Positions 3,770 to 59,927 of a stretch of DNA of 64,000 nucleotides are shown here, one piece after another. The position numbers and the translations under genes were made by a program. Positions within the stretch are counted from its first letter, which is position 1, and each line of letters begins with the position of its first letter. The notes beneath the pieces were generated by a model. It made no database searches and had not been told where the DNA came from. It worked only from the letters and a program-made list of their open reading frames with translations. Source of the stretch: a virus; the IMG/VR virus record IMGVR_UViG_3300006931_000029, positions 93,124 to 157,123 of that record; one strand, 5' to 3'.

Positions 3770-4086
3770 GACGGCGGCGTCCTCACCCCAATTTGGTAAC
3801 TCACGGCAAGCTTAGCAGCCGCTTCCGGCATCGTGTTGATTTCAGAGCGCGCCATGATAACGTGGTAGCAGCAACGATAAACAAGAATGGCGATCCACAC
3901 AGCAAGGACTAGCAAGACGCCAAGCATCACCATGACGAGATTCTGCCACGTTGGCGTGCCGAAAGCCCACCAGAAAAACGTGGTGATAACCGTGGCGATG
4001 ATCGAACCAGAGGCGAAGAAGTCAATCGGCCGAATGAAGCCGACTTGAAACAACGCTCTGGTCTGCTCGTCCAAGAGCGGTTTCAT
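3766..4086 (-). CDS. small membrane protein
   Basis: 106-aa ORF with two long hydrophobic stretches; overlaps neighbours by 4 nt. Confidence 0.4.
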   Translation of the reverse strand: MKPLLDEQTRALFQVGFIRPIDFFASGSIIATVITTFFWWAFGTPTWQNLVMVMLGVLLVLAVWIAILVYRCCYHVIMARSEINTMPEAAAKLAVSYQIGVRTPPS

Positions 4087-5573
4087 TCCTTGGTGAATGT
4101 CTCGTCGGCGTGCTGGTCGATAACCTTGACAGCTTCCTCGGCCACCATCTCAGGCGGCAAATAGAAGGAGCGCACCTTGCGAACGAGAATCTTCTTCAGC
4201 GCCTCACTCGGCTTGCAGAAACGAAGCTCGAATGGTTCGCCCTCTTTGCCGATATAGAAGACGCATTTCGCCTTGCCGTCTTTGTGGGAGTAGTAGACGT
4301 CGGAACCAAACTTGATTTGTTTGTAGTGGTCCCGAAGGTGGACAAGAAGAGCTTCGTCACGTTCTGTCGGCGTGAATGGGCCGGATGAAGGGGCGGCGGG
4401 AGCTTTTTGCTGTTGTTCGGGAGTGGGCGGTGTGTCTGACGAGGAGGCTTTTGGCATGACAGGATCGGTTGAGGGTTGTTGATCTGTGAGAACAGGAGTC
4501 CTCACATTCCGAGAACCCAATAGCTTTGGGCTCAGGGTAATCTCGCCTAGGCCGTAGTTCATTGCCTCCGTCTGACATGCGGTCTTGAGGCCGCAGGACA
4601 TGCATGTGCGATGATTCCGCTGGAAAAGGACACCGAAGCAGGACAAGCGATCCCCTTCGATGACCGGCGGCTTGGCACCGACAACAGTCAGAAGCTTCTC
4701 GACGTCGGTTGACACCTTCTCCAGCTGGTCACGAGAACAAATCGTAAAGAGCCGGGCAACGATGACCTTGTCGGTGGAGCGTGGAACCTGAACCCCGAAG
4801 ATGTTTTCAAGCGTGGCGAGCGCCGAGTTGAAGCGCACATCCTCGGGTTTGTTGTTCATGATCTTCTCCATGTATTTCGTCTTGATTGATTGATGCACGG
4901 TAGCGAAGAGTTCCTGGTCGATACCAAGACCCTCTGCCATGTGCTGGTGGCTGAGTTTCACCGAAAGCGGCTCGTTCTTCTTTCTGCCACGCGTGGTGCC
5001 CAAGTACGAGAACATGTATGCTCCCGGGTTTGGGTCTGCGAGCTGAGCTAGGACGAGTAGTTCCAGCGGAGTGAGGAAGACTTTAAGATCGTCCAACAGC
5101 TCCTGATCAAAAGAACAAGACGTGGAATCCTCCTTGCCGGCAATCTGAAGGTGGATGTCTGGATCGTCGAGGCTGACATCCGGTTTGATATTGACGCTGG
5201 TCGGATCGTTACGATCTGGAGCCCTGTGGCCAGTCCGCTTGATCGTGAAACGATGACGTTGAACAATGCCACGAACGTGGTTGTTCATCGACGTCTTTGC
5301 GACCTTAAAAAATTCAACTCGATTTCTGGCTCTAGTGAGCCAACCTGCTTTTATTACGTCAACCACTTTCTTCAAGCATTCGGCTCGAAGATCGCTGAAG
5401 TTGAGAGCGAAACAGCTGTTGTCCGTGTACATCGTAGCCACAGAGACAGCAACTTTCAGGAGGTCTTCCATCATATCCTCCAAGCGGAGGAGGGGTTGAC
5501 CGATGGCCATAGCCAATCTTGAAGATTCGACTTCGGCCGTTCTTAGCAATAGCGTAGCATCATTGACGTCCAT
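4083..5573 (-). CDS. sigma-70 family-like transcription factor with C-terminal extension
   Basis: ORF track 4083..5678; likely ATG at 5573 (MDVNDA). EFFKVAKTSMNNHVRGIVQRH resembles sigma region 2.2-2.4 (FSTYATWWIRQ pattern); LTPLELLVLAQL...SHQHMAEGLGIDQELFATVHQSIKTK resembles region 4 HTH. Confidence 0.45.
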   Translation of the reverse strand: MDVNDATLLLRTAEVESSRLAMAIGQPLLRLEDMMEDLLKVAVSVATMYTDNSCFALNFSDLRAECLKKVVDVIKAGWLTRARNRVEFFKVAKTSMNNHVRGIVQRHRFTIKRTGHRAPDRNDPTSVNIKPDVSLDDPDIHLQIAGKEDSTSCSFDQELLDDLKVFLTPLELLVLAQLADPNPGAYMFSYLGTTRGRKKNEPLSVKLSHQHMAEGLGIDQELFATVHQSIKTKYMEKIMNNKPEDVRFNSALATLENIFGVQVPRSTDKVIVARLFTICSRDQLEKVSTDVEKLLTVVGAKPPVIEGDRLSCFGVLFQRNHRTCMSCGLKTACQTEAMNYGLGEITLSPKLLGSRNVRTPVLTDQQPSTDPVMPKASSSDTPPTPEQQQKAPAAPSSGPFTPTERDEALLVHLRDHYKQIKFGSDVYYSHKDGKAKCVFYIGKEGEPFELRFCKPSEALKKILVRKVRSFYLPPEMVAEEAVKVIDQHADETFTKE

Positions 5574-6669: not shown

Positions 6670-6876
6670 TTAGCGTAGGTTAGATACTTGAGGCAAAGTG
6701 GGTTGGGCAGGGAAAAGAATACTCTTCAAGGTTCTCTGGTTTACTATCCGGAGACTGGTAGAAATTACTACGGGGGTGATAGTATTTTTGACTACCCTTC
6801 CTCAGTAGTCTTTTCTAACCGAAAAGAAACACAAAAAGGCGAACAAGATGTTTGCTCCCTATTTGCTGTGAGGAAT

Positions 6877-7488
6877 TTATGTCTCGACAGTGACCTTCTG
6901 AAGCTTCTTCACGATCGCGTCGAATGCAGGTTGATGCTTGCCAAGCTCAGGATCGATGGCGATCAACTGACCTGCCGAAAGCATCAGCGTATAAGGAACG
7001 ACCGGGGTCAACTCCACCGCGCCGTTGAGACCAAGTAAATCCTGAAGTTTGCGAATATCTTTGGAAATCTCCAGTCCGGAAACTGCCTTGGTGTCCATCT
7101 TGGCCGTCAAGTCATGGGCCAACGACAGCATGCCGTGGATGGTTTGCCGGACGACCTTGGCACCAGCTGCAGACGTGGTAACTGCCTTGGCAGGATTGTT
7201 GGTCGTGGCAGGTCCAAGGCCGAGGACTTCTCTCGCGGCCAACAAGATTTCTGACTTGCCGATTTCCAACGCGTCTTTGCCGTCCTTGTGAAGCTTCACG
7301 GCTACGTTGAAAACCTCCACGGGAAAGGTTACCACCTCACCTGAGCGTTTCTTCACGCCTACCGTCTTGGAACCCAGCTTTTCTTTGATCGCTGGCTCCT
7401 TGTCCATGTAATAAAGGACTGCGTTGATTCTGACCGGCGTCGGGACGTCTTTGTCCGTCGCTGGGTCGTAAGTTTTGGGATCGCTCAT
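6877..7488 (-). CDS. hypothetical protein
   Basis: 203-aa ORF preceded on minus strand by promoter-like motif at about 7520-7533. Confidence 0.45.
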   Translation of the reverse strand: MSDPKTYDPATDKDVPTPVRINAVLYYMDKEPAIKEKLGSKTVGVKKRSGEVVTFPVEVFNVAVKLHKDGKDALEIGKSEILLAAREVLGLGPATTNNPAKAVTTSAAGAKVVRQTIHGMLSLAHDLTAKMDTKAVSGLEISKDIRKLQDLLGLNGAVELTPVVPYTLMLSAGQLIAIDPELGKHQPAFDAIVKKLQKVTVET

Positions 7489-7517
7489 CGGACGTGGTGA
7501 TTTTAGGTTACGGATTG

Positions 7518-7534
7518 GAAATTGTAAACATTAA
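7518..7534 (-). promoter_or_regulatory. TGTTTACAATTTCC promoter-like motif (minus orientation)
   Basis: 34 nt upstream of minus start 7488. Confidence 0.45.
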
Positions 7535-7543
7535 ACGGTTTCG

Positions 7544-16517: not shown

Positions 16518-16518
16518 A

Positions 16519-16530
16519 TTTTTGTTTACA
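16519..16530 (+). promoter_or_regulatory. TTTTTGTTTACA promoter-like motif
   Basis: 29 nt upstream of ATG 16560; one of at least 12 occurrences. Confidence 0.5.
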
Positions 16531-16559
16531 TTGCCGTTCCAACGTGTATGGTGGTGTGA

Positions 16560-17303
16560 ATGTTAGACCAGCCATTGCAAATTAGGGCGGTCGTAAAAGG
16601 CCAGAATCGCTACTGCGGACCGGCCGCTGTTTCGATCATAGCCGGTATTGATACGACGCGAGCGGCTCGGCTCCTCAGGCAGGTAAGTGGAAAGAGAATG
16701 ATTTGCGGTGTTCACAATCATCACGTGATCGCAGCCCTGAAGAGGCTAGGTTACGAACTCCGCCCTACGCGTTTCCACGGTGGAATAACGTTTGCGAATT
16801 GGTTCAGTGGCATCGACCATGACCCTTCCAGGTTGTATCTCATCTGTGCAGGCCACCATTACTCAGTCGTTCAAGGCGATCAGTATTGCTGTTCCCAAAC
16901 TGTGAAGATCGTCGCGGTCTCTGAGGCTCCTCATCGCAGAGCTAGAATGCAGAATCTTTGGACTGTCCACAGGGTCGCAGAGATCGACTCTGAAACAGTG
17001 GTACAGTCGCCTCCAAAAGACAACTCGTGGTTGAAACGAATCACCGTGTCTCGCAGGGCAAAACAGTTTGGCGTTGAGATCGACGACCAGTCTCGACAAG
17101 GAGGTGTCATCTGGGTTTATCCTCCCGTCGGGTTATTCGACGACAATGGCAACGATCCTCAAGACCCATACAACGACGAGCACTTCCACGATTCGTGGGA
17201 AGAAGCAGAGAAAGCCGTTGAAGCCTATATCGCTCTGAAGATTCGGCCAGCAGTCGTTCTTCCCGAAGCAGCATGCCCGAACTCGCAGAATCCTTCATCC
17301 TGA
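16560..17303 (+). CDS. hypothetical protein (possible Cys/His peptidase-like)
   Basis: 247-aa ORF; CGPAAVSIIAG ... HHV/GHHY arrangement; speculative. Confidence 0.4.
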   Translation: MLDQPLQIRAVVKGQNRYCGPAAVSIIAGIDTTRAARLLRQVSGKRMICGVHNHHVIAALKRLGYELRPTRFHGGITFANWFSGIDHDPSRLYLICAGHHYSVVQGDQYCCSQTVKIVAVSEAPHRRARMQNLWTVHRVAEIDSETVVQSPPKDNSWLKRITVSRRAKQFGVEIDDQSRQGGVIWVYPPVGLFDDNGNDPQDPYNDEHFHDSWEEAEKAVEAYIALKIRPAVVLPEAACPNSQNPSS

Positions 17304-18145
17304 CGTCTCAGTTGGCCCAACTATTTGGGGTTCCGTTTGTCACAGACAGCCAACTGAAACTTCCGCGCAGGTTGGAATTGCAGCAACACGGTTCAGGACC
17401 GTACAAGCTGGTGATTCACGACTTCGTTTCCATCTGCGGCGACCAGTCAATCGAAGAGGAACTGGCAGAAGCAATGCCGACGCGTGTTCAACACCAAGGG
17501 AAGAAAGGCTGGATTCTGTGGAAGACGAAGAACGGCGTAGTCGAAACAGAAATACGATACGGGATGACCGGCAGTTTTGCTCTCGAAAAGACTCAGCACA
17601 CACGGTTGGAGTTTAAGAACGCAACAGGGTCGATCTACTTCAACGACATCAGGAAGTTCGGCGGAATTGTGACGAACGGGCATCCTGTCGCTGCGTCGGC
17701 GACATCAAATCTTAACGTCGAACAGGTCTACTACAGCCTGGTGGAATATCGAGATTCCACGATAAAAGAGCTGTTGACTGAACAAACGTTCCTACTCAGC
17801 GGAGTCGGAAACTACCTGGCGAACGAAGTTTGTTTTGCCACAAAAATCCATCCTGATTCTAGCGCCGGTCTTGTCACGTTTCCAGAGTTTGAAAAAATAC
17901 TGGTTGAATTGAAGGCGCTCGTAACCGAGAGCGTCGAGTTAGGAGGCTGTACTCTCAGGGACTTCAAGGATGTGATGGGTCGACCCGGGCAGTTTCAAAC
18001 GCGTCTCAGAATCTATGGCAAGAAAACGTGCCCAGTTTGCAGCGGTCCTGTCTCCGTCGTCCGTCGGCCCAATGCGACGACTAGCTGGGTTTGTCCAACG
18101 TGCCAAGACCTCAGGCGCTACCATCCACTGCTAAGTCCGAGTTGA
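17273..18145 (+). CDS. Fpg/Nei-family DNA glycosylase (formamidopyrimidine/endonuclease VIII-like)
   Basis: N-terminus MPELAES (catalytic Pro2-Glu3 of Fpg/Nei); C-terminal CPVCSGPVSVVRRPNATTSWVCPTCQ = C-x2-C-x16-C-x2-C zinc finger. Confidence 0.6.
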   Translation: MPELAESFILTSQLAQLFGVPFVTDSQLKLPRRLELQQHGSGPYKLVIHDFVSICGDQSIEEELAEAMPTRVQHQGKKGWILWKTKNGVVETEIRYGMTGSFALEKTQHTRLEFKNATGSIYFNDIRKFGGIVTNGHPVAASATSNLNVEQVYYSLVEYRDSTIKELLTEQTFLLSGVGNYLANEVCFATKIHPDSSAGLVTFPEFEKILVELKALVTESVELGGCTLRDFKDVMGRPGQFQTRLRIYGKKTCPVCSGPVSVVRRPNATTSWVCPTCQDLRRYHPLLSPS

Positions 18146-20177: not shown

Positions 20178-20628
20178 GCTTCGTCTTCAGGTACGCGATG
20201 CACATGCACTTCTGGCACAGGAAGCCATGATAGAAGGGGCATCCACGACATTTTGCGTATCGCTCTTCGTGTTGGGTTGAAGACACTGTTTGAAACCCAC
20301 TTCGTCTCCACTCAACCATGGATGACGCAAAGCGCCTCATCACTTCGCCACCAGATAGGTTCGCCTGCTGAGTGGCGGCGAGAGCAATCATCGGCGATGG
20401 CAAAACCTGTTTGCCGCAGCAGTCGGAGTTCGCAACCCCAGTTTTCAGCTCGATGTCAGGAGCGTAACCGGCGTTTCCAACCGGTGGAAACCGCTTCTCG
20501 GGGCACCCCATGAAGCTGTTCAGATTGAAATTCTTCAGGCACCTTCCATTCCACCGAGGACAACCGAGGCAGATTTTCTGGCGTCCTGGAACGTCAGGTT
20601 GCGTTCGGTTGTTGCAGCAGCTTGGCAC
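20134..20628 (-). CDS. Cys-rich hypothetical protein
   Basis: 164-aa ORF with multiple CxxC (CLGCPRW, CRGCPFYHGFLCQKCMC); convergent overlap with previous gene. Confidence 0.35.
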   Translation of the reverse strand: MPSCCNNRTQPDVPGRQKICLGCPRWNGRCLKNFNLNSFMGCPEKRFPPVGNAGYAPDIELKTGVANSDCCGKQVLPSPMIALAATQQANLSGGEVMRRFASSMVEWRRSGFQTVSSTQHEERYAKCRGCPFYHGFLCQKCMCIAYLKTKLTTESCPDSPPRWR

Positions 20629-21488: not shown

Positions 21489-21876
21489 CTAAACGTCTTC
21501 CCGTGTTAGGTTCGATTTGGACAGCTCGGTCGTCCCACAATTCCGTCATCGCAAAATCCTTTTGACACGTGATCGGAAGGACAACGCCAAAGTGCTTCTC
21601 ACACCATTTTCTAATGTGAATCGCTGCCTGCATCGCGTCGCTCTCTCGGTCGTTGGCGCCAACGAACTGCTCAACCCGATCTTCAGGGTGAATCATGTTT
21701 AGCGGCCAGACACGAGCTGTGAAGATTCGAACTTTCTTCCCTTGGACGAGCCAACGTCGAAGACGCAGAGCCATCGCTGGCACTGGTTCTCCGATGTGTT
21801 CAGCGTTTTTCCACCCCTGGTAATCGGCCAAAGTTCCGTCGAGGTCAACCCCGATCCATCCGCCAATGTGAGCCAT
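21466..21876 (-). CDS. HAD-superfamily small phosphatase-like
   Basis: GVDLDGTLA (DxDGT motif I), IFTAR (motif II-like). Confidence 0.45.
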   Translation of the reverse strand: MAHIGGWIGVDLDGTLADYQGWKNAEHIGEPVPAMALRLRRWLVQGKKVRIFTARVWPLNMIHPEDRVEQFVGANDRESDAMQAAIHIRKWCEKHFGVVLPITCQKDFAMTELWDDRAVQIEPNTGRRLDGVNDLQ

Positions 21877-23177
21877 TAGATTTCGTAGAGTCCGTGCAGT
21901 CGTGGACCATCCTTGATGGCTGCAAGATGCGCCTTCGTGTAGAGGATATTGTGGTCCTTGTGGAACTGCGACGGAAAGTAATTCTCAAGGTGCACAATCT
22001 GGAAACGGCACGTCGAGCCGAGATGTTTGATGTAGTGCTGCATGTGTTTCTTCGTGTAGTACCAGAAGCTGTTTGAGTTCCAGAACGACACGTGGCTCGG
22101 GTCTTGGTACGCTCCACGCCCATCAGTTGACGGCACTTCGATCAAGAACAAACCTCCGTGGTGCAGAACTCGGTACGCCTCATTCATAAACTGCACCACC
22201 TTGTTAGGATGAATGTGTTCAATCAAATCCTGAGCGCGTAGTGCTCCGACGCTGTTGTCTGGAAATGGCCACGTCTCTTCGAGATTGGCGATCACGGGCG
22301 CGTCGTGAACGTCGACTCCTTCCCAGCCAGGAGGAGGGTTGATTCCGCCGCCGAGATCGAGACAGCGAAGACCTTGCCGTTTCCAAAAAAAGACAGCAAA
22401 ATCTTGGATGAACCTGGCGTGGACTTGCCACGTCAGCTGTTCGATCAATTTCTGGTGCTTCAACCACGTGTTGTCGCCGTGGATCAGATATTTGTAGAGC
22501 ACCTTCTCGATGTGGTAAAAATTGCCCATGCTCATCTGATAGAGCTTGCACATCAGCTCAAGATCATCGCAAACCAGCATGTTTTCGTTGTGCCCTCCGA
22601 CAGCGTTGTAAGCGTCCATTCTCCACGCTCGAACATGGTCAGGAGCATACCAGATTCTCGTGACGTTTTGAGGAATTGCCAGCGGGTGAACAGCCACTCG
22701 GTGAGTTTCCACTGTGGCACCATGAAATTCGCGCTCAGTGTATTCCCAGCCATAAGCCGGACCATAAATTTCAGGTTTGCCGTCGGCGTGAATTCGCACA
22801 GCGTCAGAGAAAACAAAGACGGCGTTAGTCTTCAGGAACGCGGCCAAAACTTCTTCCAGACAATCTACTGATAGCTCGTCATCGTGGTCGAACTCGACGG
22901 CGAAGGGACTCATGGCGTGTTGACACGCCTTCTTTTTCAAAGCGCCGACGTTGATCGAACCATCTTCGTTTTTCTTACCCTCAAACGGGAAAAATTTGAC
23001 GCGCTGATCGTTCTCGACTATTGCGTAGCATTCTTTAGACGAGTTCTTTTGCAGGATTTTGCCGTTGAGCACCACGATCCATTCCCAGTCAGTAAGCGTC
23101 TGGCGCTTCAAACTTTGGTAGGCTTGCTCAAGCCACTTAATCGAGTTGGTTGGTGTGATAACTGAAATCTGAGCCAT
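21876..23177 (-). CDS. bifunctional glycosyltransferase family 2 / SAM-dependent methyltransferase-like
   Basis: N-term ISVITPTNSIKWLEQAYQSLKRQT (GT2); C-terminal part LDLGGG...HHGGLFLIEVP resembles class I methyltransferase fold. Confidence 0.5.
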   Translation of the reverse strand: MAQISVITPTNSIKWLEQAYQSLKRQTLTDWEWIVVLNGKILQKNSSKECYAIVENDQRVKFFPFEGKKNEDGSINVGALKKKACQHAMSPFAVEFDHDDELSVDCLEEVLAAFLKTNAVFVFSDAVRIHADGKPEIYGPAYGWEYTEREFHGATVETHRVAVHPLAIPQNVTRIWYAPDHVRAWRMDAYNAVGGHNENMLVCDDLELMCKLYQMSMGNFYHIEKVLYKYLIHGDNTWLKHQKLIEQLTWQVHARFIQDFAVFFWKRQGLRCLDLGGGINPPPGWEGVDVHDAPVIANLEETWPFPDNSVGALRAQDLIEHIHPNKVVQFMNEAYRVLHHGGLFLIEVPSTDGRGAYQDPSHVSFWNSNSFWYYTKKHMQHYIKHLGSTCRFQIVHLENYFPSQFHKDHNILYTKAHLAAIKDGPRLHGLYEI

Positions 23178-23211
23178 GTTGCGTTAGTAGAACGCCCTTA
23201 GCTCATCGGAA

Positions 23212-25113
23212 TCACATCGGAATCACGGTCACCCTCATGTCCATCGATCCAGGAGTTAAATCGCCGGCAAGCCAATTCTGAAGGTTCACACCAACAGTTC
23301 CAGATGACACAACGTTTGCGGTCACGACGGCGCCAGTAGGCCAAGCGAAGCCGTCGATCCGGTTGACCATCGCTGCGTCGTTAATGTCTACACCGCCAAG
23401 CGGAACGTTCAGATCGGACGCCAGGCCGGAACCAACGGTTCCAAAATCGTGAGACACGGTTGCTGTGAGTAGCGAGATTGAGCCTTGAAATCCTTGAGGA
23501 CCTTGAAATCCCTGCGAACCTGTGCTTCCTTGAGCGCCGGTATCTCCTTGCGCTCCAGTGCCGCCGGCTGCACCTTGAAAACCTTGAAAGCCTTGTGTAC
23601 CCGTTGAGCCTTGAAATCCCTGCGCGCCAGTATCTCCCTGCGCGCCCTGGAAACCTGCTCCTTGAAAACCTTGCGTTCCAGTCGTCCCTTGAAATCCTTG
23701 GCGGCCCTGAAAACCCTGAGCGCCCGTCACACCTTGCGATCCTTGCGCACCAGTAACGCCAGACGGCCCGGCAGGAACGAAGTCAACGACGATGTCTTCA
23801 AGGTCGCCGAAAGTTCCTTCAGTCAAGAACGGAGACACCGTGAACTTCCTGTAGCCTGTTGCCGTCACGAACAGCGTGACGTTGAAAAATCCAAAGACGC
23901 TAGGATCAACTGGCGAGTAGAAGTGGAAAATACCCTTCAGAGTGCCTGATCCGACAGAGTTAATAGCACCAAGCCATGCAGAGACGTCGACGTTGTTGTC
24001 GTTAGTCGTGCTGAAATACATTTCCGTCACGGAATCAGGATCGGCGTTGTTGAACGCAATCAAGCCGAGACCAGGGTCTTGGTCCACGGTGGACGTCGAA
24101 AAAGCGTACGGTTGGAAGTTTCCACCGAGATTGCCTTGCGGTCCTTGAAACCCTTGAGCGCCAAGTCCGCCTTGATTTCCAAGCGGGCCCGGAATTCCTT
24201 GTGGACCCGACGAACCCTGCGGACCGGCGATGACGCTGGGAGCGCCTTGCGGTCCTTGAAACCCTTGGAAACCCTGAAGTCCCTGGCTGCCGACGTTTCC
24301 TCTAGCTCCTTGAAACCCTTGCGTTCCCTCAGAGCCTTGAATGCCTTGATTTCCCTGTGATCCGCGCAAAAGAACTTGAGCCGACAGTTCGCTAGGAGTT
24401 TCCGTAGACGTCGTGTCTGCGCCTAGAGTTCCTTCAATGTTCTGCTGCGTAGCAACGTCCAACATTCCGATGATGTCTTGGCGGACCTGTGCAAGATTAT
24501 CGACAGCGGCCTGCTGTTCAGCAGTCAAGACTTTCGCATTTTCGCCACCGAGACCAATCCCATTTCGATAATTCTCCTGTGTCCGTTGAATAACCGGTTG
24601 CGTGTACACGCCGACCTGATTCGTGGCGCCGCAAATTGCTCTGGCGCAGTTGACTGCTTGAATGCCAGGGCCAATTCTCTTTTCAAACTCCTTTGCCGCA
24701 TCGCTGATCATGCCGTCAACTCGCGCCTGTAGTTGACCCAATTTTGCGAACGGATGCGTGTCGAGATTTCGCAGCAGCTTCAGGTAGGCTTCGTTTACGG
24801 CGTTCTGAAGATCGATCAACGCCTTGCCGTTGAACGGCGGCAAGAGTCCAGGACACAAAGCTTGAAGCTGATTGTATTTGTCGATGTCAACCAGCACGAT
24901 TGCGGTTAACTTAGACGGATCGACCAGAGGAATGTCTAGGCCTGCGTTGAAAAGCAAGTCGGCGACTCGACGCAGTGCTGCGAAGCGACCAATCAACTTG
25001 TTAAGCTGGTCAGTCGCGCCGACCGCGATCGCGTCCAGCATGGCGCAGAGTTCTTGTGGCGTGGACTGAGGCATTTTTCTAATTACAACGTTACTTAGGT
25101 CTAAGACCTCCAC
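23212..25113 (-). CDS. collagen-like triple-helix repeat fibre protein
   Basis: two blocks of G-x-Q/G-x-x repeats (GFQGAQGSQG...), Pro-poor; contains an approx 110-aa non-collagen domain (…ATGYRKFTV…) also repeated in 46014..48248. Confidence 0.6.
   Translation of the reverse strand: MEVLDLSNVVIRKMPQSTPQELCAMLDAIAVGATDQLNKLIGRFAALRRVADLLFNAGLDIPLVDPSKLTAIVLVDIDKYNQLQALCPGLLPPFNGKALIDLQNAVNEAYLKLLRNLDTHPFAKLGQLQARVDGMISDAAKEFEKRIGPGIQAVNCARAICGATNQVGVYTQPVIQRTQENYRNGIGLGGENAKVLTAEQQAAVDNLAQVRQDIIGMLDVATQQNIEGTLGADTTSTETPSELSAQVLLRGSQGNQGIQGSEGTQGFQGARGNVGSQGLQGFQGFQGPQGAPSVIAGPQGSSGPQGIPGPLGNQGGLGAQGFQGPQGNLGGNFQPYAFSTSTVDQDPGLGLIAFNNADPDSVTEMYFSTTNDNNVDVSAWLGAINSVGSGTLKGIFHFYSPVDPSVFGFFNVTLFVTATGYRKFTVSPFLTEGTFGDLEDIVVDFVPAGPSGVTGAQGSQGVTGAQGFQGRQGFQGTTGTQGFQGAGFQGAQGDTGAQGFQGSTGTQGFQGFQGAAGGTGAQGDTGAQGSTGSQGFQGPQGFQGSISLLTATVSHDFGTVGSGLASDLNVPLGGVDINDAAMVNRIDGFAWPTGAVVTANVVSSGTVGVNLQNWLAGDLTPGSMDMRVTVIPM
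23470..23770. repeat. collagen-like GxQ coding tandem repeat
   Basis: 9-nt periodic cc(t/c)tg(a/g)aa(a/t)cc-type units; all frames open. Confidence 0.55.
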
Positions 25114-25136
25114 CCAAACCCATTCTTCAAAAGGTA

Positions 25137-25451
25137 ATGAATCACGTCACCAGAGACCAATTAGCAGACACCTTGGCCTCCAAGCAAGGGCTCACAACGA
25201 TCGAAGCGCGCAAGACCGTCGACGTTTTTATCGAAGCGCTGGCCGAAGCGCTGGCCGGTGGAAAGGACGTTGAGCTACGAGGACTTGGTTCCTTCACGGT
25301 GAAACGCACGCGCCCACGCCCTGGTCGCAATCCGATGAAGCCTGAACAGCAAGTCATCATACCTTCGAGACTCGTTGTCAAGTTCCGACCGGGCAAGATC
25401 ATCAAAGGCGGTCTTACTAAGCTGAACGAGGCCGCCGCTCCTGTGACATAA
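25137..25451 (+). CDS. HU/IHF-family DNA-binding protein
   Basis: RGLGSFTVKRTRPRPGRNPMKPEQQVIIPSRLVVKFRPGK matches the HU/IHF arm signature (GRNPKTGE..I.IPA..V.F..GK). Confidence 0.65.
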   Translation: MNHVTRDQLADTLASKQGLTTIEARKTVDVFIEALAEALAGGKDVELRGLGSFTVKRTRPRPGRNPMKPEQQVIIPSRLVVKFRPGKIIKGGLTKLNEAAAPVT

Positions 25452-25479
25452 CTTCCTGTTTGGAAGTTCGGAATGGGGA

Positions 25480-25917
25480 GTGGACTTTTTCGTAATCATA
25501 CCGGAGAAAAGGAATACCGGGTACTGTTGCGTCAAGTTCTGTCGTCACAAAACTCGAAAGAAGTATCACGACGGAAACTTTTGCCGTCGCTGCCGAGATA
25601 GGCGATACGCGATCAAAAACCCAGTGTCCTACGCCTGGGACAAGTTGCGTTACAGCGCACGGCGCCGCAAGATTCCATTTGAATTGACAATGGACCAGTT
25701 TCGTGTTTTCTGCATTGAAACAGGTTACATCGAGCAGAAGGGTAAGTCCAGCACATGTCTGACGATCGATCGAGTCGACGCATCAAAAGGCTATGCCATC
25801 AGCAACATCCAGACGCTGACACAAACAGAAAATGGCCGCAAATCTTACGTCGACAGAAAGTTGGCCGAGTACAAGGCTCCTGAGATTGAACCGTACGACG
25901 AAGAGAATCCGTTTTAA
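25480..25917 (+). CDS. Zn-binding protein with degenerate HNH_3-like segment
   Basis: Cys-rich N-term; LTIDRVDASKGYAISNIQTLTQTEN resembles DHIDGNK..NNR..NLRLVT..EN but lacks the His. Confidence 0.3.
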   Translation: MDFFVIIPEKRNTGYCCVKFCRHKTRKKYHDGNFCRRCRDRRYAIKNPVSYAWDKLRYSARRRKIPFELTMDQFRVFCIETGYIEQKGKSSTCLTIDRVDASKGYAISNIQTLTQTENGRKSYVDRKLAEYKAPEIEPYDEENPF

Positions 25918-28106
25918 GTGTCGGCTTGAGCCGTGAAGTCGGCTGTGAGGAAGTCGCAATCGTTCACCGCCCCGGCGAGCGACGTGGTTGGGTCGAAGTC
26001 GTCGATCCAGAATTCCTCGTGAAACACATAAATGCCGGCCGAGATCATCCACGGCTGGAACGTTTGCTTCGTTGGGAAAGAATCGGTCGGGTCGACTTGC
26101 CTAATTTCTCGATTGGCAATGTCATAGTAAATGCCGTTTGGCGTTAGGGCAGGTTGTCCAATGTCACCCGGGCGCCCAACTCGAAAAGCGTCTTTCAACC
26201 TGGATTCAACCACGAGAATGTAGTTCATCCACGACTCGGTAGATTCCTGTGTCCAAACAGTGGAGTTGGCGAATACCGGCTGAGTCTCTGCACTGAGCGT
26301 ATACGCCCGACGGATCGACTCCAAAGCTTTCTGCATGTAGGTTCGCTTCCACAACCGATAGCCGGAAATCTGGGATGTCTCGCGTTGAGAACCGAATCGA
26401 CGGATGTCGATCGTTCTCAGGTATAGGCCGCCGATGTTGACGTCATCCAGGAAGAGATTGACAGTCCCTGGATTCGCGTTGAAGAAGTCAAAGAAGAGCG
26501 TGTCAGGACGACCCGATTGACTGGAGAAGATTGCCGTAGACGCGACCGCTCCCATCGTGGCCGTCATTTTGCAACTGAGATTGCCTTCGCGAACGTTCAC
26601 AAACTCAACCACGCCTACAGTCAACTTACCAGAGCCGCTATCGGTTCTTTCGATCGTGAATGAACCAACGTCGCCGTCAGCAGCCAAGACGTAGGAGTTC
26701 GAGTAGATGAACGTGCCAGCATCTTGACCATAAAGGATGAAGCCTTCGAAGAGAACCGTACCGTTCCAGATGACGCGTACTAGGAAATTGTCCGTGTCTG
26801 CCGAGTTATCAGCGAACCGGAACCGAACGGTGTAACGGCCTTCGATTAGTTTGATTTGCCAGTTGAGGAAACTCGGTCCGTTAAGCGTGGCGGTTTCAGA
26901 GCCGTCTGCTGGGATGCCATTGAGGTTCAAGCTACCGAATACTCGCGCAATGCGACTAGGTTCAAAATAGATCGCCAAACGATAGTGAGCAGTTGATGGG
27001 TCGGTAATTTGAGGAGTGAAAGAAACTCCAGAGCCAGGCGCGGGAAGATAAACTCCATCCGGCTGGTAGACTGCGCCAGATGCAAGGCTCACGTCTGCAA
27101 CCGGATTCGGCTGGTAGTAAATGGGGACGGCGCGGTACGTGTTGATCTTCAGCCTATTCGACTTCTGCCGCCAAAACTGGGCGTCTTCGTAGCTAGGACG
27201 AGCTCCTCGCACGGCGAGCGTGGTGGATGGATACGTCAACGCCAGCGACCCTCCGAATGGAGTTGAACCACTGCCATCAAATGTTTCTCCGAACCATGTC
27301 ACGGTCCGCAGGAACCGGTCGTAGACGATTCGATTACGATCAACCAAACCAGGTGAGGCGACAAACGTACGATAGCGTTCACCATCGTCTTTGAGGGTGT
27401 AAATCTCTGATTCGCGTGGGCCGTCGATGTCGGTCACTTGGACGTACAGTCGAGTTGCCCGGCTGTAGAGATCGTTGAGCTCGTACGCAACGTTGGCAAT
27501 TGCCGTGGCAACCTTGTTATCGCGATCGGCGAGCAGTTGATCCGGTTCCTTGAACATCGGGACTGAAAGCGGAAGTGAACCGCTAACGGCCGAACGGCGC
27601 GTGCTTCCTTCTGCTAACGACCAAACGTCGGTTGGCGTGACGCCAGAAACGATCGATGCAATAGGCGAAACCTCGAAAACGCTGGCAACCTTAACGAGTG
27701 ACTCGTACAGAAGCACGTCTCGAGCATAAAGCTGTCGGTCTGTAGTGATCGCTGCGATTGGGCGCGACGACGGTCTAACGTGAGTCACAGCGCCTGGAAA
27801 AGCCGGCGTCGCCATGTCAGCCGTCGATGCTTGAAGATCGCCCGTTGGGACGCCCTGCACAGCTGGTCTCGTGGTGTCCAATCCGAAGACTTCAGCCGCT
27901 TCAACAGACACCTCAGAAAGCAACGCCATGAGTATGACGTCTCGGTAGGCAAGTTCGAAATCCCGCGCAGCGTATGCCGTGGCGTCGATCCCTACGTTTG
28001 CGTTGACAACGGTCAGTGCGCTACCTGGTACCCGAGATTGACCCCACGCCAGCGTGGTTGGAAGCGGGATGATTCGAACAGACTGAAGAGGAGTCGCGAG
28101 GGCCAT
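25914..28106 (-). CDS. large hypothetical structural protein
   Basis: 730-aa ORF adjacent to fibre gene; no motif recognised. Confidence 0.45.
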   Translation of the reverse strand: MALATPLQSVRIIPLPTTLAWGQSRVPGSALTVVNANVGIDATAYAARDFELAYRDVILMALLSEVSVEAAEVFGLDTTRPAVQGVPTGDLQASTADMATPAFPGAVTHVRPSSRPIAAITTDRQLYARDVLLYESLVKVASVFEVSPIASIVSGVTPTDVWSLAEGSTRRSAVSGSLPLSVPMFKEPDQLLADRDNKVATAIANVAYELNDLYSRATRLYVQVTDIDGPRESEIYTLKDDGERYRTFVASPGLVDRNRIVYDRFLRTVTWFGETFDGSGSTPFGGSLALTYPSTTLAVRGARPSYEDAQFWRQKSNRLKINTYRAVPIYYQPNPVADVSLASGAVYQPDGVYLPAPGSGVSFTPQITDPSTAHYRLAIYFEPSRIARVFGSLNLNGIPADGSETATLNGPSFLNWQIKLIEGRYTVRFRFADNSADTDNFLVRVIWNGTVLFEGFILYGQDAGTFIYSNSYVLAADGDVGSFTIERTDSGSGKLTVGVVEFVNVREGNLSCKMTATMGAVASTAIFSSQSGRPDTLFFDFFNANPGTVNLFLDDVNIGGLYLRTIDIRRFGSQRETSQISGYRLWKRTYMQKALESIRRAYTLSAETQPVFANSTVWTQESTESWMNYILVVESRLKDAFRVGRPGDIGQPALTPNGIYYDIANREIRQVDPTDSFPTKQTFQPWMISAGIYVFHEEFWIDDFDPTTSLAGAVNDCDFLTADFTAQADT

Positions 28107-29124: not shown

Positions 29125-29140
29125 TTTTATTGTTTACAAA
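29125..29140 (+). promoter_or_regulatory. TTTTATTGTTTACAAAA promoter-like motif
   Basis: 17 nt upstream of ATG 29156. Confidence 0.45.
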
Positions 29141-29155
29141 ATCCAGCAGAAGCGT

Positions 29156-29566
29156 ATGGTGGTTGTCATGGACGAGCGAGCGCTCACAAACAACCTACTG
29201 GGTCGTGGCCACTCCGACTCAACCCCAGTTGCCTTTAGACCCTGGGACACCCTTCACGCACGCGTCACTCAAGGAATCGTGGCAGGTGCCGTCGGTGACC
29301 TATTGATTCTCAATGCAGTCAATGGCTTGACCGACCAACAAGCCGACATGTTTGCAGCCGCAGAGAAGCGCAGAGAACTCGAGGAGTACGAAGAAGGTAA
29401 GCGAATCCTCGCCAGAAACCAAGAGCGAGCCCACGGCAAGTGGTTAGCCACCCAGAGGCAACTTAAAGCTCCGCCTCCATTGGAACGTCAACCTGGGGAA
29501 AGCGATGCCGTTTTCGCGCTGAAACAGCTAGCGCGTCACGAATTTCTAAGCAAGTTCAGTAGGTAA
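29156..29566 (+). CDS. hypothetical protein
   Basis: 136-aa ORF. Confidence 0.4.
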   Translation: MVVVMDERALTNNLLGRGHSDSTPVAFRPWDTLHARVTQGIVAGAVGDLLILNAVNGLTDQQADMFAAAEKRRELEEYEEGKRILARNQERAHGKWLATQRQLKAPPPLERQPGESDAVFALKQLARHEFLSKFSR

Positions 29567-30644: not shown

Positions 30645-31006
30645 TAGGACGCCTGTTGTTCGGCGTCTCCAAGAACGGCAGTGGCCATCTTCTGAAGTTC
30701 GACCCAGCAGGTTGGGTCGAGGTTGATCGGTTTGATTTCGTACTTCGGAAACATGTCGGCTAGTTGCCGCGGAGTGATGTCCTCGTTGATAGGAGCCAGA
30801 ATTAGCATGACCGTGCGGAGCAATTCGTCTTGGAAGTCAAGGTCGGCTCCTGCGCAGTAGTCCAAGTCAACACAGCCGCATCCTACGAGTCCCATGCGGA
30901 CACGGACACCAAACATCATCCGCGTGAACCCGATTTCCCAGCGACCACCGAGAGACACCCAGCGGTGGAAGAAATTTTCGTTGGGTTGTGCCGGTTTGAA
31001 AACCAT
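30644..31006 (-). CDS. hypothetical protein
   Basis: 120-aa ORF; promoter-like motif 27 nt upstream on minus strand. Confidence 0.4.
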   Translation of the reverse strand: MVFKPAQPNENFFHRWVSLGGRWEIGFTRMMFGVRVRMGLVGCGCVDLDYCAGADLDFQDELLRTVMLILAPINEDITPRQLADMFPKYEIKPINLDPTCWVELQKMATAVLGDAEQQAS

Positions 31007-31034
31007 GACTCTATCTTAAGAACGTATCAAAATG

Positions 31035-31050
31035 TGTAAACAAAAAAAAA
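31035..31050 (-). promoter_or_regulatory. TTTTTTTTTGTTTACA promoter-like motif (minus-strand orientation)
   Basis: plus strand reads TGTAAACAAAAAAAAA; lies between terminator and start of 30644..31006. Confidence 0.45.
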
Positions 31051-31072
31051 GAGGGCAGCTTTCGCCGCCCTC
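31041..31072 (-). terminator. rho-independent terminator
   Basis: minus strand: GAGGGCGGC-GAAA-GCTGCCCTC hairpin (9-bp stem, one mismatch) followed by T9; downstream of flotillin/NfeD operon. Confidence 0.6.
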
Positions 31073-31100
31073 CTTTTCGGGGGTTTGGTGTAGTCCGGCT

Positions 31101-42822: not shown

Positions 42823-42834
42823 ATTTTGTAAACA
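42823..42834 (-). promoter_or_regulatory. TGTTTACAAAAT promoter-like motif (minus orientation)
   Basis: 29 nt upstream of minus-strand start at 42795. Confidence 0.45.
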
Positions 42835-42837
42835 TTA

Positions 42838-52764: not shown

Positions 52765-53280
52765 CTACGACCTCTCAGCCGCTTCCGCAGAACCAGGCGT
52801 TTGTTCAAGAGAACGCTGTTCAGAATCGCCAGATTTCAACGTCAGGTTTGTTCCCCTGAGAGCAGCAATGCCGGACTCCCGGGCCAAATCTTGCAGCGTA
52901 AACAGGTAATTCTTCGCCAATTCGTAAGGGTCTGCGCTCATGAATCCGTACATCGGCGAGTACGACCGCCGATCCGAGTACAGCTCAAGGGAGAAGGCGA
53001 GACCGTTGTGGTAGCTGCCGAGCGAGTCAGATTGTCCACGAGCAAACACCCTGACGTTGCGAGCGTCGTAAACGAACGACTCGATTCTTGCGTCGTTGTC
53101 CCTGATGATAACGCCGTCTCCTCTCACGAAGATGGCAATTCCTTTGCCCATTTCACCGCAGGAAAAACCCATCTTGCGAAGGATTTTCAGCGTAACCCAC
53201 CAAACACTGGACGTGTCATCGGCAGGTTCCTTTGGTGCCAGTGCAAGCAATGAATTTCTGTTTACGAGTTCCAATTCCAT
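52765..53280 (-). CDS. hypothetical protein
   Basis: 171-aa ORF. Confidence 0.4.
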   Translation of the reverse strand: MELELVNRNSLLALAPKEPADDTSSVWWVTLKILRKMGFSCGEMGKGIAIFVRGDGVIIRDNDARIESFVYDARNVRVFARGQSDSLGSYHNGLAFSLELYSDRRSYSPMYGFMSADPYELAKNYLFTLQDLARESGIAALRGTNLTLKSGDSEQRSLEQTPGSAEAAERS

Positions 53281-53296
53281 ACGTAAGGTGAGAACA

Positions 53297-53701
53297 ATGA
53301 AGCCTGCGAATCTAGTGGATCAAATGCTGGAGACCGACAGTGAGCCTGCGCGTGAGCCAACTCCTAGTTTGACGGTTCCAGACGCTGGCATGTCTCGGTA
53401 TCCGAAGGATGAAGAGGCCACTCGCAACGCTGTCGAGAAAGTCGGGGATGGACAACAGCCGGATGAATTTTTCGTGTCGATCGGCGACGAGTTCTACGAG
53501 GACGAACCTGAACAATCCGGCGAGAGCTACAGCATCGGCCAGTTTGCCGATCCGAAGGAAGCCGAGAAGATGTTCAACAACGTCGAGCTGAACGGCGCAG
53601 AAGGACCGCGCTGGGTTTCAGTCGAGAATCGTCTCAAAGGCCTGATCAAGCAACGCTACCTGAAGAAGGTGGTGAGCTATCAGGAGGAGACACGGGACTA
53701 G
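53297..53701 (+). CDS. small acidic protein, LVExML N-terminal-motif family
   Basis: AAGGTGA SD then ATG 53297; MKPANLVDQMLETDSEP; terminates with tandem TAG TAG (53699-53704). Confidence 0.45.
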   Translation: MKPANLVDQMLETDSEPAREPTPSLTVPDAGMSRYPKDEEATRNAVEKVGDGQQPDEFFVSIGDEFYEDEPEQSGESYSIGQFADPKEAEKMFNNVELNGAEGPRWVSVENRLKGLIKQRYLKKVVSYQEETRD

Positions 53702-54531: not shown

Positions 54532-55046
54532 GGGTGTCCCGGCCTTGGCGGCCAAACTGGTTGAGCTTTCTGTTGTTGCAGCGGAGTTCTGCCTTCTCCG
54601 TATCCTAGCATGAAGCAAGCGAGCCGAGCGTACCGTCTTGCTTCTTCCGGGTTCTTGACTAAGTCGTTGGCTTTATCGATGCAGAGTGTCCAACACTCCT
54701 CCTTCATGCGAGCGTCGTACTCGGGCGAGTCTGGGTCTAAGTCTTCTGGTGCTACGTCGCCGAGGTATTGTTCGACCTCGTCCTTGATTCTTTTGACGAT
54801 TGGATTTTCTCCACGCTCGGTGATCGAATCTTCGCTCAGCAGTTGCTCAACCACGCCGCTTGGCGTGAGGTCAGGAAGTACTTTGAAGAAGTCGAAATCA
54901 GAGCCGTCTTTTCCGTCAGAAACAGGTAGCTCAACGATTTCGCCGGGCTTCACGTCGCGAGGATGGCATTCACGCTCGCCTTCCCTAGTCTTGACCACAA
55001 CGTGGTCATAACGGTCAAGAAGGTCTTTGTGCCGGATCATCCGCAT
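54528..55046 (-). CDS. hypothetical acidic protein
   Basis: 172-aa ORF; internal VVEQLLSED segment. Confidence 0.4.
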   Translation of the reverse strand: MRMIRHKDLLDRYDHVVVKTREGERECHPRDVKPGEIVELPVSDGKDGSDFDFFKVLPDLTPSGVVEQLLSEDSITERGENPIVKRIKDEVEQYLGDVAPEDLDPDSPEYDARMKEECWTLCIDKANDLVKNPEEARRYARLACFMLGYGEGRTPLQQQKAQPVWPPRPGHP

Positions 55047-55075
55047 AGTTTACCTACAGACTAACAGAACACGGC

Positions 55076-55087
55076 ATTTTGTAAACA
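55076..55087 (-). promoter_or_regulatory. TGTTTACAAAAT promoter-like motif in divergent region
   Basis: 32 nt upstream of minus start 55046; 13 nt before plus ATG 55102. Confidence 0.45.
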
Positions 55088-55101
55088 GATTCTTCCCAGC
55101 A

Positions 55102-57709: not shown

Positions 57710-58071
57710 TCTTCGATGAGACGGCTAACAACTTGCCTTGGAGTGGATTCTCGGCGTAAAGGACGGCTAGGGCGACTGAAGTTCGTGAAAAATTTTCCGG
57801 CACTCCGGTCGGCTTTTGCTTGTTGGATCGCCGACTGGATTTCCTCAACTCCAGCCGTTTCTTTATCCACAAAGAAGGTCAAGCTGTCAACGAAGTGCCG
57901 ACCGGCAGTCGAGTCCAGATATTCCTTCGCCTTCAGCGGATCGCCACCGAGGACGTCGATCAGGTAGTTGTAGATGCCGAGCACCTGAGCGCGGGAGACG
58001 TTGCCCCAATTGGCAAGCGTGCCGTAAAATCCCCAGTCGGTGTTGATGTCGTCGGCGGTGAACTGTGCCAT
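57706..58071 (-). CDS. hypothetical protein
   Basis: 121-aa ORF. Confidence 0.45.
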   Translation of the reverse strand: MAQFTADDINTDWGFYGTLANWGNVSRAQVLGIYNYLIDVLGGDPLKAKEYLDSTAGRHFVDSLTFFVDKETAGVEEIQSAIQQAKADRSAGKFFTNFSRPSRPLRRESTPRQVVSRLIEE

Positions 58072-58130
58072 GTGATAAATATGAGCTCAGGTCTTGAGGC
58101 TCGTGACCCATACAACACAACCCAGCTGAG

Positions 58131-58145
58131 TTTGTAAACAAAAAT
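58131..58145 (-). promoter_or_regulatory. ATTTTTGTTTACAAA promoter-like motif (minus orientation)
   Basis: about 60 nt upstream of minus start 58071. Confidence 0.4.
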
Positions 58146-59080: not shown

Positions 59081-59887
59081 TCAGGTCTCCGAGGCCGTGA
59101 CAACAGGTTTCGATTTTTCCGAATCCCAATTCATCGCGAGACGCGATATTTGACCGACGTACTCAGCCGCTTTTTCCTTCGTCCACGCGTGAATAATCCA
59201 ACTGCCGTCTCGGTATGCCCTCGTCGTCTTTTCCGCTGAGAAGAGAAGCTCGAGCATGTCTGCCAATTCCTTTGGTATGTTTTCGATCTCGATGTGGTAG
59301 ACGCGTTTGCGACTACCGAGAACCATTGCGTGGGTCGGAATGTGGTTAAACACGACTCGGTACCACGGTCCGGTCCAGTAGCTGCCGTAGAGATTTTTCG
59401 TTTCGGTGAATTCGAGACCGTTGAAGTTGATGTCTTCGTCACACACCAGATTGTGCCAGAAATAATGATTGCTGAGATGGCCGTAGCCATTCATGCATGT
59501 CCGATGGGCGGTTCGCTTCATCGATTGGATGTGCTCCTGATTTCTCAGAGACTCCACTGTATTTTCCCACCCGCGCTGGCAGATGGGACAAATTTGGTTT
59601 CTCACGTCGGCCACGATCGTACCCGTGACCGACTTGTCGTCACCGCCAAAGTGTTCGTGCCATCGAACCCATAGCTGGTTGTATTGGTCAAACCCGCAGG
59701 CAGGAGAACCATCGTTCAGTCTGTCGGGCGTCACGGGCTTGAGGATTTCGTTTCCTTTGCTGCCACCGAAGTGGATCGTGCTCATGGGTTGGTCGGGTTT
59801 GGGATCGCGTGTGTAGAAGCATGGACCTTTGTCGCCAAAACACAGGTGGCAATCGCCATCGCCATTCGTATCATTTGGGCAAGGCAT
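59081..59887 (-). CDS. Cys-rich hypothetical protein
   Basis: ORF 59081..60097, but promoter-like motif lies inside its 5' part; ATG at 59887 (MPCPNDTNGDGDCHLCF) 28 nt downstream of motif; CPICQRGW. Confidence 0.45.
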   Translation of the reverse strand: MPCPNDTNGDGDCHLCFGDKGPCFYTRDPKPDQPMSTIHFGGSKGNEILKPVTPDRLNDGSPACGFDQYNQLWVRWHEHFGGDDKSVTGTIVADVRNQICPICQRGWENTVESLRNQEHIQSMKRTAHRTCMNGYGHLSNHYFWHNLVCDEDINFNGLEFTETKNLYGSYWTGPWYRVVFNHIPTHAMVLGSRKRVYHIEIENIPKELADMLELLFSAEKTTRAYRDGSWIIHAWTKEKAAEYVGQISRLAMNWDSEKSKPVVTASET

Positions 59888-59913
59888 AGCGTCACCCAAA
59901 CGCCTCAGCCAAT

Positions 59914-59927
59914 AATGTAAACAAAAA
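59914..59927 (-). promoter_or_regulatory. TTTTTGTTTACATT promoter-like motif (minus orientation)
   Basis: 28 nt upstream of ATG 59887. Confidence 0.5.

Follow-up and report, generated by a model that had tools for sequence, protein, structure and literature searches.

Introduction

Which transcription machinery reads a short sequence that recurs between the genes of a phage is the question raised by a 64,000-nucleotide (nt) stretch of IMG/VR virus record IMGVR_UViG_3300006931_000029 (positions 93,124–157,123 of the record; this whole stretch is referred to as the window). The initial annotation of this DNA had noticed a motif with the core TGTTTACA, represented by TTTTTGTTTACA at 16519–16530 (+), upstream of at least 12 genes and had taken it as a candidate phage-specific promoter of the middle or late class, possibly read by a sigma-70-like factor encoded at 4083..5573. 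On sequence grounds TTTTTGTTTACA is instead the -35 region (T-run plus TTTACA) of a bipartite sigma-70-type promoter, which consists of a T-run, TGTTTACA, (A/T)3TC, a spacer of 16–17 nt in total and TAnnnT. We favour, at somewhat better than even confidence, the reading that these sites are early promoters for the primary sigma factor of the host and that most of their messenger RNAs (mRNAs) would be leaderless; recognition, start sites and timing are predicted from the layout of the sites.

The genome is a contig of ~225 kb. Homologues of the sigma-like protein were found on metagenomic contigs of 199–229 kb, which encode a Gp23-family capsid protein, an S77 prohead protease, UvsX/RecA, a DnaB helicase, a family-A DNA polymerase and collagen-like tail fibres; the source is a jumbo phage that has not been cultured and is distantly related to T4. 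No deposited phage has a capsid protein more than ~30% identical to its own, and matches at or below this level come from phages of many phyla. A megablast search of deposited phages with 20 kb of sequence gave no match, and a search for related loci in viral contigs with the DNA polymerase returned nothing. Loci of relatives are referred to by L numbers.

The recurrent motif

Exact copies of TGTTTACA were counted on both strands of the window and compared with dinucleotide-preserving shuffles. Twelve copies were present against 0.95 expected, and 12 or more occurred in none of 100 shuffles, so that the recurrence described in the initial annotation is real. The longer form TTTTTGTTTACA, allowing at most one mismatch, was found eight times in the window (0.24 expected). 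In an unbiased scan of all 8-mers the TGTTTACA word headed the list of over-represented words, apart from those contributed by collagen Gly-X-Y codon repeats.

Self-trained gene calling gave 91 genes, with 93.4% of the window coding and 6.6% non-coding at a guanine plus cytosine (GC) content of ~53%. Equal frequency of the motif inside coding regions had been named in the initial annotation as an outcome that would speak against a promoter; instead, the non-coding 6.6% holds 11 of the 12 exact copies (P = 1.2e-12). All 11 intergenic copies face a start codon on the same strand, as had been claimed, at distances of 16–81 nt, slightly wider than the 17–60 nt given originally. The eight copies in co-directional spacers are all oriented along the genes (8/8), and at most sites only 3–14 nt separate the stop codon of the co-directional upstream gene from the motif.

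Every one of the 11 exact sites listed in the initial annotation was recovered at its coordinates, and the variant placed at 39829–39838 is present as CGTTTACA at 39830–39837 (+). A reverse variant placed at 34243–34251 also exists, as TGTTTACG at 34250–34257 (+), although it lies ~6 nt from that position and has no -10 element. The twelfth exact copy had not been listed; it is intragenic and is probably a chance match (Table 1). Alignment of the 11 window sites with seven sites of relatives gave the consensus a.TTTTT-TGTTTACA-(A/T)3-TC, which bears out the T-run on the 5′ side and the A/T-rich segment on the 3′ side that had been noted by eye. A text search combining TGTTTACA, promoter and phage found no matching publication.

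Promoter architecture

The initial annotation had held that the motif does not resemble sigma-70 -35 and -10 boxes. This was wrong on three counts: TTTACA, which is contained in all 11 intergenic sites, matches the -35 hexamer TTGACA at five of six positions; a hexamer of the form TAnnnT follows 16–17 nt downstream in seven of the 11; and start codons cluster at the predicted +1. TAnnnT occurs at that spacing from 1.2% of all positions and from 1.8% of non-coding positions, giving P of ~1e-10 to 1e-11. The other four sites have degenerate hexamers that end in T (Table 1). Several of the motif sites were called independently by a generic sigma-70 scanner.

The distance from the motif to the start codon was analysed in a set of 16 sites on this genome, comprising the 11 window sites, the variant at 53259 and four sites in 20 kb of flanking sequence of the same phage. 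The end of the motif is followed by an in-frame ATG after 28–31 nt in nine of these 16 (P = 6e-9) and by an in-frame start codon after 28–37 nt in 12; where the 28–31 nt geometry holds, the start codon is ATG in nine cases of nine. Distances of 29–30 nt recur in relatives (L001:18441, L014:19123, L014:21275 and L007:1317). A spacer of 16–17 nt, a hexamer of 6 nt and a further 6–7 nt add up to 29 nt, the textbook position of +1, so that the A of the ATG would itself be +1 and the transcripts would be leaderless or carry a leader of 2–8 nt.

No Shine–Dalgarno (SD) signal was detected in the genome: an SD 5-mer precedes four of the 91 genes, where chance would give ~10%, and G is under-represented at -13 to -9. 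This lack is consistent with leaderless transcripts and implies a host in which initiation does not depend on SD sites. Highly expressed genes, gp23 among them, have A/C-rich leaders (AGCATCAACCAA...).

ATG codons at 16–20 nt after the motif (in L009, L013 and L014 and at 29131) were considered as a sign that the motif is not a -35 element. This was rejected for most of them, since these ATGs form part of TATGnn -10 hexamers and another start in the same frame follows at 29–36 nt.

That the motif is no promoter at all, being rather a repressor operator, part of a terminator or a replication or packaging signal placed between genes, was also weighed. Such a role might be suggested by the 3 bp dyad symmetry TGT..ACA, by the T-run that follows a hairpin at 31042 (-) and 29131 (+) and by the start of most sites so shortly past the upstream stop codon. 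A convincing hairpin lies 5′ of the motif in only one or two of 13 sites, however, and strict orientation, a TAnnnT at fixed distance and start codons at 28–31 nt would not be expected of an operator or terminator; we regard this explanation as very improbable. The site at 31042 (-) is the only clear terminator–promoter module: a 15 bp hairpin with a T-run (31045–31078, fold -25.4 kcal/mol) stands 5′ of the motif, and a terminator and a promoter were both called there.

Table 1. Motif sites and the associated genes in the window. Positions are those of the window; distances run from the end of the motif to the ATG.
Feature	Extent	Strand	Motif	Spacer (nt)	-10 hexamer	ATG (distance)	Remarks
Promoter site	7488..7535	-	TGTTTACA 7523–7530	17	TAAAAT 7500–7505	7488 (34 nt)	Leader ~4–5 nt; best generic sigma-70 match of its region (10/12); heads the gene string 203 aa (amino acids), 338 aa, sigma-like protein
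Promoter site	16518..16562	+	TTTTTGTTTACA 16519–16530 (exact TGTTTACA 16523–16530)	16	TATGGT 16547–16552	16560 (29 nt)	Leaderless geometry; starts 5 nt past the DNA polymerase stop codon; 247-aa ORFan downstream
Promoter site	29125..29170	+	TGTTTACA 29131–29138	16	TATGGT 29155–29160	29168 (29 nt)	Divergent spacer; leaderless geometry; 132-aa ORFan
Promoter site	31004..31078	-	TGTTTACA 31035–31042	16	TAAGAT 31013–31018	31006 (28 nt)	Leaderless geometry
Promoter site	36743..36812	-	TGTTTACA 36798–36805	17	TAGAGT 36775–36780	36743 (54 nt)	Divergent spacer; leadered; 620-aa AAA+ ATPase
Promoter site	38885..38930	+	TTTTTGTTTACA 38887–38898 (exact TGTTTACA 38891–38898)		TCTTAT 38915–38920 (weak)	38928 (29 nt)	Two small ORFs (open reading frames) and tRNA(CUA) downstream
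Weak or uncertain variant	39830..39872	+	CGTTTACA	14 (to TATCCA)		39870 (32 nt)	Kept in L007, yet no proper -10 at 16–17 nt
Promoter site	40361..40396	+	TTTTTGTTTACA 40363–40374 (exact TGTTTACA 40367–40374)	16	CATTGT 40391–40396 (weak)		Long leader, then 74-aa ORF and tRNA cluster from 40690
Promoter site	42795..42837	-	TGTTTACA 42827–42834	17	TAGGTT 42804–42809	42795 (31 nt)	Leaderless geometry; begins 3 nt past the last gene of the tail-fibre block; metallophosphoesterase
Variant site	53259..53299	+	TGTTTACG 53259–53266	17	TAAGGT 53284–53289	53297 (30 nt)	7 nt from hexamer to ATG; leaderless geometry; absent from the initial annotation
Promoter site	55044..55090	-	TGTTTACA 55080–55087	16	TAGTCT 55058–55063	55046 (33 nt)	Divergent spacer; leader ~4 nt
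Promoter site	58069..58145	-	TTTTTGTTTACA 58133–58144 (exact TGTTTACA 58133–58140)	17	TTGTAT 58110–58115 (weak)	58071 (61 nt)	Leadered
Promoter site	59885..59927	-	TTTTTGTTTACA 59916–59927 (exact TGTTTACA 59916–59923)	16	TTGGGT 59894–59899 (weak)	59887 (28 nt)	Leaderless geometry
Intragenic copy	61138–61145	+	TGTTTACA				No T-run, -10 or downstream start; probably a chance match
tRNA, anticodon CUA (amber suppressor)	39458..39533	+					Well-formed; called by ARAGORN (labelled 'Pyl') and as an Rfam tRNA (65.8 bits); part of the unit transcribed from the 38891 promoter
Divergent sigma-like protein (putative), 496 aa	4083..5573	-					Predicted sigma2-like and sigma4-like N-terminal half, Cys-rich motif, YjbR-like C-terminal domain

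Conservation in relatives

At the junction between RecA and the 203-aa gene, TTTT(T)GTTTACA is kept in six relatives (L001, L012, L004, L013, L014 and L009) in which the sigma-like protein is 54–86% identical to that of the window, while the flanks and the spacer have diverged. In L007, a relative at strain level, the three sites around the tRNA cluster are all retained with altered spacers, and CATTGT is kept at the 40363 site. A motif site just past the gp23 terminator is common to L001 and to this genome's own flank (L016). In the distant clades L002, L003, L008, L010 and L011 (GC up to 62%) few or no TGTTTACA sites were found in the available loci. The architecture nevertheless turns up now and then: immediately 5′ of the sigma-like gene, L002:1436 has a hairpin, GTTTACT, 17 nt, TAGATT, 4 nt and ATG. 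A second instance is L006:15867, with GTTTACA, 17 nt, TACATT, 5 nt and ATG.

Clade-specific motifs were sought in the distant relatives and rejected: the over-represented 8-mers were coding repeats (Tyr-Tyr codons in L008, paralogous N-termini in L006). L006 carries ~27 copies of GTTTAC(G) in 21.5 kb, mostly intragenic, and small paralogous genes that start with ATGGCGTCTAAAATTTTA (MASKIL...) at 16640–17850. In L004 (1–4880) the DNA polymerase contains an intein (Intein_splicing, LAGLIDADG; 1603 aa) and the gene at the DnaB position contains Hom_end_hint/Hom_end (805 aa); the copies in the window have neither.

Comparison with known promoter classes

Leaderless genes fused to their promoters are known from lambda cI, transcribed from PRM, and from many genes of Actinobacteria and Deinococcus. 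The sites described here resemble them in that the -10 hexamer lies 6–8 nt 5′ of the ATG, whose A would be +1. They differ in that the arrangement would prevail throughout an entire class of phage promoters and is combined with a strong -35, as judged from geometry only.

In T4 and five relatives the early promoters, which are read by host sigma-70, have GTTTAC at -36 to -31, A at -11 and T at -7, and they sit 5′ of early genes, novel ORFs or ORFans and tRNA genes; GTTTAC as the early -35 has been reported in T4, RB69, 44RR, RB49 and Aeh1 (Nolan et al. 2006; PMC1524935). The present sites share the GTTTAC core in every instance, the implied +1 (29 nt after GTTTACA) and the key -10 positions (T/A at -12/-11, T at -7), and many copies likewise stand in co-directional gene strings, 5′ of ORFans and tRNAs and not 5′ of late structural genes. 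Genes for a Gp23-family capsid protein, an S77 protease and UvsX are a further likeness to T4. In contrast to T4 early promoters the -10 is much weaker here, and most sites place the start codon at +1 (by geometry) whereas T4 genes have SD leaders; the phage is also only distantly related to T4.

Measured against a general housekeeping promoter (TTGACA, 17 nt, TATAAT), the sites agree in five of six -35 positions, in the 16–17 nt spacer, in TAnnnT and in an upstream A/T tract. They depart from it in that every copy has T rather than G as the third base of the -35, in the invariance of ~17 nt and in a poorer -10.

Three further classes were compared and rejected. T4 middle promoters, which depend on a MotA box, (a/t)3TGCTTtA, and on sigma appropriation by AsiA, share a T-rich lead-in and a TG-T-rich box 5′ of a sigma-70-type -10; TGCTTNA-N12-TANNNT had no match, however, and the present motif is 16–17 nt from the -10 rather than centred at -30 with 11–13 nt. 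The T4 late element (TATAAATA at -13 to -6 with no -35; read by gp55, gp33 and gp45) had no match in the window, and the motif differs from late and other phage-sigma promoters in being bipartite, near the host consensus and not 5′ of structural genes. A Bacteroidota-type promoter (TTTG at -33, TAnnTTTG at -7) was considered because the genome lacks SD sites: TAnnTTTG shows no enrichment, with 24 copies compared with 16.6 expected, mostly within genes and at none of the motif sites.

Recognition of the sites

According to the favoured reading, host RNA polymerase carrying the host primary sigma factor would bind the sites right after infection, without phage proteins, which would make them an early class. 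Region 4 of sigma would read TTTACA and region 2 TAnnnT, while the upstream T-tract could act like an UP element for the C-terminal domains of alpha. Transcription would start ~29 nt past the motif, which in more than half of the sites is the A of the ATG, and the resulting mRNAs, leaderless or with a leader of 2–8 nt, would be translated without a Shine–Dalgarno interaction. One of the promoters heads the string that encodes the phage sigma-like protein, which may then redirect the polymerase to a later promoter class.

Several observations weigh against this account. Four of the 11 window sites, and several sites of relatives, have a -10 that is weak or from which the key A at position 2 is missing, whereas ~17 nt around the -35 are almost invariant, with conservation that extends beyond the hexamer on both sides and far exceeds that of the -10; an invariant -35 block with a weak -10 is unusual for sigma alone, and an additional bound factor could be involved. 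The upstream tract is T-rich (TTTTT 5′ of TGTTTACA), unlike the A-rich element of T4 early promoters at -40 to -44. At L014:8267 no in-frame start is available other than one 17 nt past the motif, within the expected -10; this site does not fit the model and is unexplained. The phage encodes, close by, a protein whose predicted fold is sigma-like, the sequence covered amounts to ~84 kb of the ~225 kb genome, and the motif was compared with the general bacterial consensus rather than with that of the phage's own host.

The invariant block leads to one of the alternatives, in which host sigma reads the -10 and an extra factor binds the ~17 bp T-run/TGTTTACA/AAATC block, either as a MotA/AsiA-style activator or as an Alt-style modified alpha subunit; the promoters would then be delayed-early or middle. 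The poor -10 hexamers of several sites and the conservation of the block beyond the hexamer would suit this, as would the link shown in T4 between ADP-ribosylated alpha and T at -33 of GTTTAC (PMC1524935). Its position does not: the block lies at -35 with a 16–17 nt spacer and lacks the MotA-like arrangement. No MotA, AsiA or Alt homologue was found among ~60 window proteins scanned with PHROGs and Pfam, a set in which most proteins have no family and which comes from ~64 of the 225 kb. Nor was a separate set of plain host-type promoters, as a true early class, found in the window. We consider an extra factor of this kind unlikely.

The sigma-like protein

The alternative implied by the initial annotation is that the protein encoded at 4083–5573 replaces host sigma on the core polymerase and reads TTTTTGTTTACA together with the downstream hexamer, making the sites middle or late promoters. 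The presence of a divergent sigma-like protein at this locus is accepted with moderate confidence, and its family, in which a Cys-rich motif is conserved (C312, C324, C327 and C333 in the window protein), comprises at least 26 proteins. The protein gave no match in Pfam or PHROGs, none in PDB by phmmer or hmmsearch and no relative in deposited phages; hhalign against an approximate RpoE sequence and Foldseek against viral models were negative or insignificant. Among NCBIfam families, only sigma70-ECF and RpoD_Cterm were matched by more than one member (two of 19 each, E ~0.02–0.07). A profile from a tighter alignment found no relative of the protein in GTDB representative genomes and three loci in viral contigs.

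These faint NCBIfam matches, and an unusually invariant extended -35 with a weak -10, as would suit a specialized factor, are what speaks for the phage protein as reader. At the sequence level, however, the sigma assignment falls short of significance, and the motif is nearly the universal housekeeping consensus in both sequence and spacing. Known phage sigma factors (T4 gp55, SPO1 gp28 and gp34) read sequences unlike the host consensus. The protein is also kept in L002, L003, L008, L010 and L011, whose available loci contain few copies of the motif or none, and its gene always adjoins the capsid module, a few genes 5′ of the S77 protease and gp23, whereas the genes driven by the motif are of early type and none is structural.

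The sigma-like gene itself lies behind a motif promoter, that at 7530 (-), in a string in which the gap between the first two genes is zero in L013 and L014 and in which no convincing terminator was seen in the window. This arrangement means that the motif needs a reader present before infection, and the protein would be a product of the promoter class rather than its reader. Replacement of host sigma by the phage protein is accordingly judged unlikely. A stronger version, in which a new phage sigma family (sigma2-/sigma4-like, Cys-rich, YjbR-like and with no detectable similarity to known sigmas) directs host core polymerase to TTTTTGTTTACA-N16/17-TAnnnT, with nearly all transcripts leaderless, so as to form a phage-private transcription–translation channel in a host without SD initiation, is given an equally low probability.

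The label of the initial annotation, phage-specific, middle or late and cognate to the phage sigma, is thus unsupported, given that GTTTAC is the T4-type early -35 (PMC1524935), that non-structural genes are driven and that the sigma-like gene stands behind a motif promoter. Half of the earlier interpretation survives, namely a promoter and a sigma-like gene; the promoter is of the ordinary sigma-70 type and most likely read by host sigma. The 4083–5573 protein is a candidate reader of a different, later promoter class.

A tandem repeat, CTGTCAAC-T-CTGTCAAC, lies at 5588–5604 (-), 15–30 nt 5′ of the ATG of the sigma-like gene. It is kept in L001, L004, L009, L012, L013 and L014, with the variants CTGTGAAC and CTGTTAAC, and could be an operator or an RNA-level control element of this gene.

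Downstream genes and other features of the window

The promoter recurs about once per 5 kb, 5′ of non-structural genes: small ORFans, a metallophosphoesterase, an AAA+ ATPase, an NAD-dependent DNA ligase, the tRNA cluster and the string of the 203-aa, 338-aa and sigma-like genes. No motif site was found 5′ of the tail-fibre/collagen blocks (43058–51096 and 21876–28106), the S77 protease or gp23, and a comparison of the S77 and gp23 upstream regions across clades revealed no common signal. The best genome match of the phage ligase is 33% identical and belongs to a Sulfurimonas metagenome-assembled genome, which is uninformative on the host.

TAG is the rarest stop codon (8/91 genes). Recoding of TAG, suggested by tRNA(CUA), was examined and rejected: readthrough extensions are short (15–77 codons) and no clear sign of it was seen in the window. 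Within the tRNA cluster, an odd 96-nt tRNA at 40690–40785 (+) was called Glu(UUC); its variable arm is long and its anticodon stem poor (Rfam 31.6 bits). The adjacent segment at 40790–40916 (+) is tRNA-like, with a canonical T-arm and acceptor stem, a ~55-nt D-loop insertion and TTCTAA in the anticodon-loop region; it was called by neither ARAGORN nor Rfam. The cluster is flanked by a 20-nt direct repeat, ATGAAAnCnGAAAACTAGGT, at 40417–40436 (+) and 40928–40947 (+), each copy of which forms a mini-ORF of ~6 codons ending in TAG.

A second signal, TA(T/C)(T/C)TA(A/G), was seen 3–10 nt 5′ of starts that have no TGTTTACA, at 6680–6686 (-), 28116–28122 (-), 51104–51110 (-) and 39534–39540 (+). Among the genes that it precedes are those for the 846-aa and 730-aa proteins and the one that comes before the sigma-like gene, at which L001, L004 and L002 have TATCTA. 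Seven of 16 TAYYTAR copies lie at most 25 nt from a start codon (P = 6e-9, a statistic inflated by stop codons of upstream genes). A second, later promoter class is possible, a suggestion that was downgraded since several copies are merely the TAA/TAG stop of a packed preceding gene and about five are truly intergenic.

At 13497/13498 the DNA polymerase gene (+) and a divergent 323-aa gene (-) share 2 nt at their start codons, as they do in L001; with no intergenic spacer between them, their promoters must lie within each other's coding sequence. Four convergent gaps of 214–416 nt without a confident gene (20178–20593, 41982–42195, 52404–52764 and 53702–53962) are unusually long for a dense genome. 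Rfam gave no match in them at the gathering threshold; they could hold missed genes, terminators or non-coding RNAs. Two large tail-fibre-like proteins, at 23212–25041 (-) and 46014–48248 (-), have long collagen triple-helix repeats, which give rise to the most over-represented 8-mers of the window (GGTGGTGG and similar words).

Implications

The promoter kind is itself known, and current concepts are unchanged; a known kind of signal is extended to a new lineage. The GTTTAC -35 of T4 early promoters recurs here despite a capsid identity of ~30%, which suggests that this variant is widely favoured, beyond the coliphages. For a jumbo-phage lineage without a cultured relative the sites offer a ready transcription map, with ~16 promoters in 84 kb pointing to roughly 40 per genome, and they mark predicted early genes, a tRNA cluster that includes an amber-suppressor tRNA and the string with the divergent sigma-like protein. 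The pervasive leaderless geometry and the putative novel sigma-like family are the more interesting by-products of the analysis. If the leaderless design holds for most sites, this phage would possess an early regulon that bypasses ribosome-binding sites in a host without SD initiation.

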